Source of the DNA: Escherichia phage vB_EcoM_VR7 | Length of the DNA: 64,000 nt | Sequence record: NC_014792.1 | Direction: 5' to 3' (one strand) | Shown here: positions 26,168 through 39,213 of the stretch, one piece after another | Layout: each line of letters opens with the position of its first letter | Numbering within the stretch: the first letter of the stretch is position 1 | Translations under genes and position numbers: made by a program | Notes under the pieces: generated by a model | What the model saw: only the letters and a program-made list of their open reading frames with translations | What the model was told of the DNA's origin: nothing | Databases searched by the model: none

Positions 26168-28219
26168 CTATGAAAGGAATTTAGGAGGAATACTTTCCAA
26201 ATTAATACAACTAGCAAGAATACCAAGGCCTTGGTTGACTTTCTTCGTCACCCTGGAGGATGCAAACGATGCGAAGTCAACAGATTCTTCTGGTTCCTCG
26301 CCTTTATAAACGACAAGCTCGCCAGTTTCCATCAACACATCACCATCATAGATAACTGCATTTTCATCCAGTTGGTCAGTGGTCTGAATGTCAGGTTCCA
26401 GCATTTTGACGTTCGCATTTCCTTGATACGACGCATCCGTAATTTTTGTAATCTTAACTATAGTTCCACGAGGAAGAATAACTTCTTGCTCGGTCGGGTT
26501 TCCTGACAATTCACCAGGAACAATTACGTTAATTAAGTCCGCTCCAGAAATTTTCCAACCGACATGCATCATTACGTGGTCGCGGCGGGCATCCGGCATA
26601 TCTGGTAAAACAATTTCGTCATCAGCCTGGAAAGATGTCCCATCACGATAGTCCTGATGAACTGCGGCCATAGCAACGTTCGCCACCCAGCCACCAAAGA
26701 TAATCGGTTTAAACGACGTTGATACATAGTTCCTGAAATAAAATAATTTAGATTTCTTAATTTTATCAAATGTAGGAACGTTTAAATATTGACCACGCCA
26801 AAGAGTTGTATTAGGCGGCAACTTATGTCCAATTTCAAAGGCCGAATCCAATTCCTTAATTGTTTCGACAACTCTGTCTAGATTTAGGAATTCAGCTTCT
26901 TCTTCATAATATTTGCCCATCAAATAATTATTAATATCGGCATAGTTTGCTCCACAATAATCTGCAATTGCTTCTCGCTGGCCATAATGGAAACGGTTGT
27001 CAGTATACCCTGCTGTGAAATTAAGAGTATTTTCTGATGCTTCTTCGGCAAAGTCTTTAACTGCAACACGAATGGCGCTTGTGTATTCTTTTTCCCAGAG
27101 CGAGGCTGCATAAGTGGCTGCATCTAGGTTAGGAGGAGCATCATTCATTTTTCTTTCGATAAATGCGGCTTTGCGAAGGTTAAGAATCTCTGCGCATGAT
27201 TCGGCAAAAATCTGCATCTGCTTCATGCTACCAACTGGGGCACGTTTAAGTTCACGATGCATACGGTTAAAAATTGGGTCAGAGTCTTCAACACGAATTT
27301 CTTCTTTCCAAACACCATTTGCGCGCATAGCCGTATCCGCGGCGCGCATACGAGCCATAGTATTCGTTTCGGAAGGTCGAACAAAAATTTCCAGTTCTTC
27401 GGCATCATCAATTAATTCAGCAGTTGCAGGTCGACTAAACTTAGCAGCTTCTGCATCAATTTCGTCCCAACCTTCTGGCACGGAATCACTTGGTGCGTAC
27501 TGGGCTTGTGCAATAGCTCGGCGACTGATTTTAGTTTTCTGGGCAACAGCAGCGTCGGTCTTTTTGTTTGCTGCGTCAATCAGAACTTCGGCTGCGATTT
27601 CTTGTTTGGAGACTTGCGCACCGTTATCTTTATTAGTGAATACGTCGCCAACTTTTGTTGTGACTTTTTGATATTTCTCAGGGACAGGTGGCATACCATC
27701 AACCGACAGCAGGTCAACGCCCTTTTTGTACATAATTACATAAGCGTTCTTTTTACCGAGACCAGAAGCATTCGGAAGAACATGATAACGCCCGGAAGTT
27801 TTCATTTGAATCAGTCGATTCATAATACGAATAACAGCTTGCTCTTGACCTTTCATCTTTTTGGAAGGGAAACGGAACAAGACTACATCAGGTTTGCCTA
27901 GTTTGATACTTTCCCAGACTGTGGTAAAAATCAGGTTAATCGCATCAAGAGGTTTTTCACCTAGGCCACCCTTCAGAGGAACAGCATGGCCGTGTGAAGT
28001 CCCAGAGAGCAGGAATACCTCGGCAATTGCATCACCACGTTTATATTGTTTAACAGTTTCTTTGCCCGTGAATTGCATTAAACGGGCCATAAGAGAATTG
28101 GTCCCAGGAACACCGAATTGCCAAACCTGCGGGACCTTGTATTTTGGATTCATATTAATGACAGGATAACCGAAGGCTTCGATATATTTGTCAAAGAGTT
28201 CATTTAATTGTTCAGACAT
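26168..28219 (-). CDS. alt: Alt-like ADP-ribosyltransferase (virion-packaged in T4)
   Basis: 683 aa, same size and position (between 54 and 30) as T4 Alt; minus-strand late promoter directly upstream. Confidence 0.65.
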   Translation of the reverse strand: MSEQLNELFDKYIEAFGYPVINMNPKYKVPQVWQFGVPGTNSLMARLMQFTGKETVKQYKRGDAIAEVFLLSGTSHGHAVPLKGGLGEKPLDAINLIFTTVWESIKLGKPDVVLFRFPSKKMKGQEQAVIRIMNRLIQMKTSGRYHVLPNASGLGKKNAYVIMYKKGVDLLSVDGMPPVPEKYQKVTTKVGDVFTNKDNGAQVSKQEIAAEVLIDAANKKTDAAVAQKTKISRRAIAQAQYAPSDSVPEGWDEIDAEAAKFSRPATAELIDDAEELEIFVRPSETNTMARMRAADTAMRANGVWKEEIRVEDSDPIFNRMHRELKRAPVGSMKQMQIFAESCAEILNLRKAAFIERKMNDAPPNLDAATYAASLWEKEYTSAIRVAVKDFAEEASENTLNFTAGYTDNRFHYGQREAIADYCGANYADINNYLMGKYYEEEAEFLNLDRVVETIKELDSAFEIGHKLPPNTTLWRGQYLNVPTFDKIKKSKLFYFRNYVSTSFKPIIFGGWVANVAMAAVHQDYRDGTSFQADDEIVLPDMPDARRDHVMMHVGWKISGADLINVIVPGELSGNPTEQEVILPRGTIVKITKITDASYQGNANVKMLEPDIQTTDQLDENAVIYDGDVLMETGELVVYKGEEPEESVDFASFASSRVTKKVNQGLGILASCINLESIPPKFLS

Positions 28220-30100: not shown

Positions 30101-30913
30101 TTAACCCCTTCCACAGGTCGGTTGATTATACCAGTATTCAATACCAGTACCTACGCCATATTGGTATGGATATGCTGGATTATATCCAGGAGTCCATGGC
30201 TGACCTGGCTGCCAGCCTTGTTGCATTTGTTGCTGAAGACGTCGAGTTTCACGAAACAGTTCTTCCAGTTTACGGAGTTCATCTGGTGTGAATTCTGGTT
30301 TGGTCGGTTCATCTTTGTGTTTCAGTTTAAGCTGTCCAGCAACATCGTCCCAATTAAAAACTTTGGAAGCTGTTTTAGGAATAGCATCACGTTCACCACG
30401 AGCCATCCAATAAACCGGAACTGCAAGGATTTCACTCGCATGGTCGCAATGGTGAGCAAGGTCATCAATATAACAAATGACATTATATTTGTCTTTTGCC
30501 TTCTGGAACAACTCCTCTTTAGAGGCTGTATGACCACACATCATAACTTCTTTAAACGCACCAGGGAACAAAGCATTCAGGTTGAATTGACGATTCAGGC
30601 GGGCGTCAATGGAATCACCCAGGGCTGTAACGGCCACAAAATCATATTGTTCTTTGAGGTTATTAATAACCCTTAACGCATCTGCATAAGGAGACAAATA
30701 ACGAATAAAATCCGAACAGTTATATTTCTCAATCAACTGTGCGCCCAACTCTTCATCACAATTGAACAGTTTGCCCGGGGTCACAAATTTTTCATCCTGA
30801 ATCATCTTAAGGATATGTTCCAGGGGTAAATTGTATTTTTGAGCGAAATAAGGCAAGCCAGATTGCCATGACAAACATACGCCATCAATGTCTGTTAAAA
30901 TAACGGGTTTCAT
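30101..30913 (-). CDS. HAD-like hydrolase-fold protein (30.2 position) with Q/P/Y-rich low-complexity C-terminal tail
   Basis: N-terminal ILTDIDGV motif (HAD motif I, DxDG); C-terminus QQQMQQGWQPGQPWTPGYNPAYPYQYG. Confidence 0.55.
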   Translation of the reverse strand: MKPVILTDIDGVCLSWQSGLPYFAQKYNLPLEHILKMIQDEKFVTPGKLFNCDEELGAQLIEKYNCSDFIRYLSPYADALRVINNLKEQYDFVAVTALGDSIDARLNRQFNLNALFPGAFKEVMMCGHTASKEELFQKAKDKYNVICYIDDLAHHCDHASEILAVPVYWMARGERDAIPKTASKVFNWDDVAGQLKLKHKDEPTKPEFTPDELRKLEELFRETRRLQQQMQQGWQPGQPWTPGYNPAYPYQYGVGTGIEYWYNQPTCGRG

Positions 30914-31377
30914 AATGCATCTCTCAATTGGTTAAGTATGTCAATAAATTCTTGTTCAGTCAATATTGTATCATGAACAGTAAGGTGGCTCGCCATCGAA
31001 TGCTTTAAAACTTTGCCCTTTGTAGCTTGTAATGCGTCGCGGAATCCTTTGTTTTGGAGAGCTGCTTCAAAATATGCACTTGTATACAACTCTTTCCATG
31101 CTGCAGAGTATCTTGAAAAGGGAATTCCAAGCCAGAAAAGCGTCCCACGGTCCGCAGCTCTTGCATAAGCTCTTCCAGTTTGTTGTGCGACCAGCCCGGA
31201 CATCCCAAATATACGTTTTTGTTGTTCATAATTTCTCACCTTGCACCCTTGTAGGAAGCCTTCAAGACCTCCAAACTGGATACCATCCATAACAAAAGGC
31301 CATTTGGCAAAGTTACTTAATGCGCATGATGGCCACGGGAAATTGCTTCTGATTTCTAACTCAGACATCTTTGACAC
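30910..31377 (-). CDS. NADAR/YbiA-like domain protein (30.3 position)
   Basis: 155 aa with SNFPWP...FWLGIPFSRYS-type motifs that resemble the NADAR (DUF1768) family; position matches T4 30.3. Confidence 0.55.
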   Translation of the reverse strand: MSKMSELEIRSNFPWPSCALSNFAKWPFVMDGIQFGGLEGFLQGCKVRNYEQQKRIFGMSGLVAQQTGRAYARAADRGTLFWLGIPFSRYSAAWKELYTSAYFEAALQNKGFRDALQATKGKVLKHSMASHLTVHDTILTEQEFIDILNQLRDAL

Positions 31378-37123: not shown

Positions 37124-37370
37124 AATGCTCTTCCAGGAAGTCCAGGAGGGCCGTGGCGGAGGTAAAGATACCACCATCAACCTTGTCTTCATCTTGATAG
37201 TCCATCACATCCAGACCGATACGTCCATCAGTTAGCGGCCATACGCTGAAAAAGTATTCATAACCTTTTTCAATTTCTTCAATCTTGCGAAAAATCTTTT
37301 CGATATTGTTCATAGGTTTCCACATCTCTACTACTTGAGTATAAATATAGTATATCACCAAAGAGGACAT
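37113..37370 (-). CDS. Hypothetical protein (85 aa or shorter)
   Basis: ORF; start uncertain. Confidence 0.3.
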   Translation of the reverse strand: MSSLVIYYIYTQVVEMWKPMNNIEKIFRKIEEIEKGYEYFFSVWPLTDGRIGLDVMDYQDEDKVDGGIFTSATALLDFLEEHYVR

Positions 37371-37373
37371 ACA

Positions 37374-39213
<1,840 letters not shown>

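Follow-up and report, generated by a model that had tools for sequence, protein, structure and literature searches.

The window analysed here – the whole of a 64,000-nucleotide stretch from Escherichia phage vB_EcoM_VR7 (sequence record NC_014792.1) – carries on its minus strand an orthologue of phage T4 gene 30.3, which very probably encodes the anti-DarT factor NADAR (AdfN), an enzyme that reverses the guanine ADP-ribosylation made by the DarT1 toxin of the DarTG1 defence system. The open reading frame (ORF) in question spans 30910–31377 on the minus strand and reads as 155 amino acids from a GTG start, 155 being the length that the first-pass annotation had given. An in-frame ATG at 31368, three codons inside this ORF, gives 152 amino acids instead. 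Since the orthologues of T4 and of Escherichia phage vB_EcoM_VR25 are annotated from the ATG (459 nucleotides, 152 amino acids), this start is preferred, and the likely extent of adfN is 30910–31368, coding for 152 residues, not 155; close homologues have 150–153 amino acids and begin M-S-E-L-E. The gene proposed in the first-pass annotation is thus real, although its start codon and its length have to be corrected. The features of the coding region and its borders are as follows.

30910–31368, minus strand: adfN (T4 gene 30.3 orthologue), 152 codons plus stop; predicted single-domain NADAR-fold DNA ADP-ribosylglycohydrolase
31369–31377, minus strand: three extra codons, GTG-TCA-AAG, of the 155-amino-acid ORF; probably untranslated as part of AdfN
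31361–31368, minus strand: 8 nucleotides, ATGTCTGA, over which the stop of gene 30.4 and the adfN start overlap, read from the sequence; also in T4 and VR25
30910–30913, minus strand: ATGA, shared by the stop of adfN and the start of gene 30.2, read from the sequence; also in T4 (6308/6311) and VR25

That this ORF is a gene, and no chance reading frame, is clear. Its product matches the Pfam family PF08010 (Phage_30_3) with E = 4e-64 and 215 bits (cut-off 36), covering profile positions 2–138 of 138, as well as phrog_652 (E = 3.6e-51), and homologues of adfN were found by tblastn in 1509 phage records. In comparison with T4, RB69 and VR25, the substitution rate is 0.37–0.39 at codon position 3 and 0.07–0.17 at positions 1 and 2; as substitutions concentrate at third codon positions, the adfN frame is under purifying selection.

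The surroundings of the gene are those of a T4-like phage. The 2.5 kb around adfN are 96.6% identical to VR25 – classified in Straboviridae, Tevenvirinae, genus Gaprivervirus – and 94.6% identical to VR26. The gene order is T4-like throughout (alt, 30 (ligase), 30.1, 30.2, 30.3, 30.4, 30.5, 30.6, 30.7, 30.8, 30.9, rIII, 31, cd), every neighbour of adfN is the orthologue of a T4 30.x gene, and the order 30, 30.1, 30.2, 30.3, 30.4 is common to the window, T4, VR25 and RB69. From the overlapping start and stop signals, we infer that adfN is translationally coupled to both 30.4 and 30.2.

Family membership, fold and active site

The 152-residue protein is 100% identical to gp30.3 of VR26 and 85% identical to T4 gp30.3, over 152/152 residues and without gaps. 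Its relationship to the wider NADAR superfamily is faint when approached with a single sequence: phmmer places it against YbiA (PDB 2b3w) at E = 0.61 over residues 17–69, and the NCBIfam model TIGR02464 (the riboflavin-intermediate N-glycosidase family) is matched at E = 0.13, with 12.5 bits where the cut-off is 73.7. Such searches alone are insufficient to establish a NADAR relationship. A profile of the family, searched against the PDB, finds YbiA at E = 0.0045, or at 3.6e-4 when built on a more diverse alignment, and hhalign of the gp30.3 family against an alignment of the YbiA family gives a probability of 94.2% (E = 1.1e-7). With distant phage homologues added, the probability rises to 97.3% (E = 2.4e-11) over 140 columns, nearly the whole protein including its C-terminal helix. 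The ‘NADAR/YbiA-like motifs’ on which the first-pass annotation had been built are therefore real – weak in a single sequence, significant by profile.

An AlphaFold2 model of the protein (predicted local distance difference test (pLDDT) 84, predicted template modelling score (pTM) 0.79) has the α-helical core flanked by small β-sheets by which the YbiA fold is recognised. When this model was searched with Foldseek, only the three solved NADARs were returned, with probabilities of 1.00, 0.99 and 0.97, all other matches having 0.03 or less. This comparison is decisive for a NADAR fold, and the absence of such a fold – which the first-pass annotation had named as a reason to abandon its reading – is not what the model gives. 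Having every testable sequence and fold feature of the group, the protein belongs to the phage NADAR/gp30.3/AdfN family. Within Pfam it sits in PF08010, a sister family of the NADAR family PF08719, and not in PF08719 itself. The two families overlap at the sequence level, because some YbiA-family proteins match both: several bacterial members that are ~65–70% identical to E. coli YbiA (P0054, P0097, P0104, P0130, P0134 and P0141) have precomputed matches to PF08010 as well as PF08719.

The residues expected to form the active site, together with the C-terminal helix, are listed below; conservation was judged on an alignment of homologues down to 38% identity and, for His123, over 13 sequences.

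31261–31263, minus strand: codon GAA for Glu36, the predicted catalytic glutamate at the distal ribose; invariant in the alignment, aligns to YbiA E48
31240–31242, minus strand: codon AAG for Lys43, predicted to bind the phosphates/adenine of ADP-ribose; Lys or Arg in all homologues, aligns to YbiA K55
31000–31002, minus strand: codon CAT for His123, in the last β-strand, a mark of the phage (gp30.3) NADAR clade; invariant
30913–30957, minus strand: C-terminal α-helix, residues 138–152; helix at 138–151 in the model, aligns to the YbiA C-terminal helix

The motif GGLEGFLQGCKV, which holds both Glu36 and Lys43, is the same in the window and T4 proteins. The equivalent pairs, E43/K50 in the NADAR of Phytophthora nicotianae and E88/K95 in DarG1 of E. 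coli C7, make contact with ADP-ribose at its distal ribose and its phosphates, and the function of T4 AdfN is abolished by E36A and by K43A (Johannesman et al.; PMC11825919). In the last β-strand, the literature (including PMC11125620) assigns a His to phage NADARs, in the place of the Glu of YbiA and the Asp of DarG1.

Could the gene nonetheless be an inactive relic? Truncated or fused adfN fragments are common in databases, and phage RB69 shows that loss of adfN is tolerated: its allele carries one extra T, inserted at nucleotide 411, which leaves an inactive 137-residue product without the C-terminal helix. The window gene, by contrast, has no T insertion of this kind; it is full length at 152 amino acids, its C-terminal helix is intact, it keeps all invariant family residues, and its substitutions are biased to third codon positions. 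With this, a relic is highly improbable.

Another alternative is suggested by the structural match itself, as E. coli YbiA is the best match in both structure and sequence and the sub-threshold TIGR02464 match points the same way – namely, that the protein is a YbiA-type housekeeping N-glycosidase, which destroys reactive intermediates of the riboflavin pathway and has no role in defence. The Glu of the last strand that defines YbiA is absent here, its place being taken by Lys122/His123, and because of this the protein is not a YbiA-type enzyme. Furthermore, the published tree groups the phage clade with the DarG1 NADARs rather than with YbiA, and both a clear DarTG1 phenotype and DNA de-ADP-ribosylation activity are reported for the T4 orthologue. 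We regard this alternative as already largely refuted, and as most unlikely.

Probable reversal of guanine ADP-ribosylation

What is known of the function comes from the T4 orthologue and its relatives. NADARs were described by Schuller et al. (2023) as guanine-ADP-ribose (ADPr) hydrolases and DarT1 antitoxins, with a phage clade noted among them. Purified T4 gp30.3 was then found to hydrolyse guanosine-ADPr, but not thymidine-ADPr, in vitro (Toxins 2024, PMC11125620), and the protein was given the name AdfN by Johannesman et al. (preprint 2024; Nat Commun 2025, PMC11825919). In the latter study, T4 AdfN was identified as a DNA ADP-ribosylglycohydrolase that is both necessary and sufficient against DarTG1: deletion of adfN made T4 and T2 ~10^4-fold sensitive to this system, RB69 was rescued by ectopic AdfN though not by its E36A or K43A mutants, and the purified protein stripped ADP-ribose from DNA in vitro without binding DarT1. 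A T4 transposon screen agrees, with adfN dispensable on K-12 and insertions in it completely lost on a DarTG1 host (bioRxiv 10.1101/2025.11.20.689424), while a 2026 study reported that the T4 NADAR removes G-ADPr and not C-ADPr. The suggestion in the preprint that AdfN acts specifically on hydroxymethyl-cytosine DNA was rejected in PMC11825919, where unmodified T4-GT7 was still protected.

From the sequence, the first-pass annotation had guessed at ADP-ribose processing and, beyond this, at a counter-defence function against DarTG-type systems. Both guesses find support, the former in the NADAR fold and in the DNA ADP-ribosylglycohydrolase activity of an 85%-identical protein, the latter in the requirement for that same T4 protein in infections of DarTG1 hosts. 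The checks that had been proposed – a fold prediction, a hydrolase assay and a knockout on a DarTG host – have each been carried out on the T4 orthologue, with positive outcomes.

Our analysis itself covers orthology, fold, conservation of the catalytic residues, the intact C-terminus and synteny; by analogy with T4, we infer that the window protein would behave as an AdfN in its own phage. The best explanation of the gene is very probably, then, that it encodes an anti-DarT factor of the NADAR superfamily, orthologous to T4 gp30.3, that reverses guanine ADP-ribosylation by DarT1. On infection of a host with DarTG1, the DarT1 toxin would ADP-ribosylate guanines in the phage DNA and so block its replication. 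AdfN, as a minimal single-domain NADAR, would bind the ADP-ribose with Lys43 at the phosphates/adenine and Glu36 at the distal ribose, where His123 is probably found as well, and would hydrolyse the N-glycosidic bond between ribose and guanine, giving back unmodified DNA and allowing the phage to replicate. Its target would be the lesion, not the toxin, and its activity would be specific for guanine-ADPr, with none on cytidine-ADPr or on the thymine-ADPr made by DarT2.

A number of points weigh against this explanation. The Pfam NADAR model PF08719 has no match at E ≤ 1 in the protein, for which only PF08010 is reported. In the hhalign register, His123 falls one column after the catalytic Glu of YbiA (E125, as in the NADAR of P. 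nicotianae) and not on it; the Glu125 column is occupied by Lys122 – a variable position with K, R or T – which His123 follows, and no mutagenesis of His123 that tests its role was found in the cited AdfN literature. The window protein is separated from the assayed T4 AdfN by 23 substitutions, albeit with none at family-invariant positions, and no AdfN of a Gaprivervirus is among the phages tested in the cited AdfN studies. In uninfected cells, moreover, T4 gp30.3 fails to rescue DarT1 toxicity (PMC11125620), and T5 and Bas25 are barely rescued by T4 AdfN (PMC11825919). Because DarT1 is not neutralised in uninfected cells and the rescue of T5 and Bas25 is poor, the activity of T4 AdfN in vivo depends on a further T-even factor; the published conclusion is likewise that full activity in vivo requires such a factor, yet to be named (PMC11825919).

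The same enzyme might also have a main target other than DarT1. As a general eraser of guanine-ADPr on DNA and/or RNA, it would deal with lesions left by other ADP-ribosylating toxins or defences, such as ScARP-, pierisin- or YarT-like enzymes or RNA-targeting ADP-ribosyltransferases (ARTs) – a reading that overlaps with the explanation by DarTG1 and does not exclude it. In its favour, the T4 NADAR removes G-ADPr installed by ScARP, and not by DarT1 alone (PMC11125620; 2026 study), the authors of the AdfN work point out that, for an enzyme directed at the lesion, it makes no difference which toxin has placed it (PMC11825919), and the gene is kept in the 1509 phage records, with hosts as distant as Vibrio, Acinetobacter and Sinorhizobium. 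Yet the sole phenotype reported in vivo is against DarTG1, and in the literature examined, restriction of T-even phages has not been demonstrated for any other defence ART specific for guanine. A main target other than DarT1 is therefore unlikely, if less so than the other alternatives considered here, and DarT1 remains the preferred one.

The function of the gene is already known rather than new, since an identical protein is in GenBank and the function of its family is published; what follows for this phage is mainly a matter of annotation. The entry can be changed from ‘hypothetical protein’ to AdfN, the label lagging behind a function published in 2024–2025. The same lag is seen across the family, whose hosts include Escherichia, Klebsiella, Shigella, Aeromonas, Acinetobacter, Vibrio, Sinorhizobium and others: among the 40 records listed out of the 1509, nearly all are called ‘hypothetical protein’, some are mislabelled ‘putative baseplate hub’ and few note NADAR/Phage_30_3. 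By analogy with T4, the phage of the window is predicted to resist hosts that carry DarTG1, which may be of some use in judging the host range of T4-like therapeutic phages.

Neighbouring genes

With respect to the T-even factor that T4 AdfN requires in vivo, one might look to the two genes coupled to adfN, of which gp30.2 would be a likelier candidate than gp30.4; that either of them is the factor is, in our estimate, quite improbable. The gene for gp30.2 (30101–30913, minus strand, 270 amino acids) is ‘hypothetical’ in T4; no Pfam family was found for its product, which matches only phrog_420, of unknown function. In its AlphaFold model (pLDDT 84), gp30.2 adopts a haloacid dehalogenase (HAD)-superfamily hydrolase fold like that of 5'(3')-deoxyribonucleotidases and HAD phosphatases (Foldseek E 5e-8 to 1e-6), followed in the C-terminal ~70 residues by a long helix and a disordered tail rich in Q, P, W and Y. 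The HAD catalytic residues D8, D10, K132, D150 and D151 do not vary among 24 homologues.

If gp30.2 were the factor, it might stabilise or localise AdfN as its partner, or else dispose of the released ADP-ribose. A link between the two is favoured by the conservation of the overlapping start and stop signals and by the arrangement in two distant Straboviridae phages:

L005 (Acinetobacter phage fHyAci03), 1501–2644: a gp30.2, 49% identical, directly after adfN
L009 (Vibrio phage 6E35.1a), 1501–2459: an annotated 5'(3')-deoxyribonucleotidase directly after adfN, sharing only the DxD motif region with gp30.2

Against it, the adfN genes of Krischvirus and Slopekvirus have no HAD-type neighbour, and the text of the transposon screen names adfN alone as conditionally essential on DarTG1 (bioRxiv 10.1101/2025.11.20.689424). 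A functional link between gp30.2 and AdfN is thus a low-probability lead, not a finding.

Within adfN itself lies a further reading frame, which is annotated in T4 and VR25:

31005–31229, minus strand: nested ORF 30.3', 74 amino acids, in the +1 frame of adfN; matches PF11097 (DUF2883) at E = 8e-24

In spite of its Pfam and PHROG families, this ORF is probably not a selected gene, judging by the way it varies. The frame does not stay open in RB69 or in the homologues from Slopekvirus, Krischvirus and Vibrio, its T4 and window versions are 58% identical, as against 85% for adfN, and third-position divergence of adfN is much the same inside the overlap with 30.3' as outside it (0.37 and 0.39, p = 0.87). 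We considered it as a second functional gene, or as the missing partner of AdfN, and rejected both ideas on these grounds – its breakage in RB69, its fast divergence and the lack of wobble constraint. That it is not the partner follows from its interruption in RB69, a phage that supports AdfN function.

Further downstream, the phage encodes an ART of its own:

26168–28219, minus strand: Alt-type ADP-ribosyltransferase, 683 amino acids, PF03496 at E = 2.7e-19; 2.7 kb downstream of adfN

The same block of genes thereby encodes a ‘writer’ of ADP-ribose (Alt, on proteins) and an ‘eraser’ (AdfN, on DNA). The presence of Alt on the strand of adfN, in an arrangement of alt, 30 and 30.x that is conserved in T4, VR25 and RB69, could be taken to mean that AdfN cleans up collateral ADP-ribosylation by the phage's own ARTs, namely Alt or, elsewhere in the genome, ModA and ModB. 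Such a role is scarcely probable, given that adfN is dispensable on hosts without DarTG1 and that Alt is annotated as targeting proteins such as RNA polymerase, with nothing linking it to the modification of guanine. The preferred target of AdfN is still the lesion left by DarT1.

The minus-strand block around adfN also holds the ligase gene 30, cd and pseT, as well as alt, as annotated in the near-identical VR25. A scan for promoters and terminators found consensus-level sites only, and gives the ‘early’ timing assumed in the first-pass annotation no firm support beyond the position of adfN in this block. Upstream of gene 30.8, the scan located the following sites, which may mark the start of a transcription unit that includes adfN:

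33010–32991, minus strand: strong terminator-like hairpin, 8-bp stem plus T-run, just upstream of 30.8
32968–32940 and 32926–32897, minus strand: σ70-like sites after the hairpin, upstream of 30.8; consensus matches only

Two further observations concern the window at large. A plus-strand ORF at 37335–38099, inside the long minus-strand block, corresponds in position to the MobE-like mobile nuclease gene of VR25 and is likely a homing endonuclease insertion. A search of the window for tRNA genes gave none.

Relation to known NADARs and anti-DarT factors

The closest characterised counterpart of the window protein is T4 gp30.3, with which it shares length, neighbours, overlapping start and stop signals, E36, K43, H123, the C-terminal helix and the predicted fold; besides the 23 substitutions, the two differ in their phages, T4 being a Tequatrovirus and the window phage a Gaprivervirus akin to VR25 and VR26. 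E. coli YbiA (PF08719; 2b3w), a riboflavin-intermediate N-glycosidase with a housekeeping role, is far more distant, at ~20% identity.

DarG1 (the BC4488 family, represented by the G. lovleyi structure 8bat and by the NADAR of E. coli C7) is the antitoxin with which AdfN invites comparison. The window AdfN is an orphan without an adjacent DarT, the nearest ART being the phage's Alt (PF03496); it consists of the core only, without an N-terminal extension (152 amino acids versus 219), and has His123 where DarG1 has its catalytic Asp (D171 in E. coli C7). It is for these reasons – no adjacent DarT, no extension and His for Asp – that AdfN, while working like DarG1, is not DarG1. Furthermore, the T4 orthologue is unable to stand in for DarG1 when no phage infects the cell (PMC11125620).

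Among phage proteins, AdfN(Bas32) and AdfN(Bas60), from T5-like and Vequintavirinae phages, are likewise orphan NADARs that reverse DarTG1. They fall, however, into different clades of NADARs – archaeal-like and bacterial non-YbiA – and neutralise DarT1 without phage infection, which AdfN of the T4 type does not. The same DarTG family of defences is also countered by AdfA (T4 61.2), AdfB (ICP1) and AdfM (T4 tk.4), the last of which differs from AdfN in being a macrodomain directed against the thymine-ADPr of DarTG2 (bioRxiv 10.1101/2025.11.20.689424).

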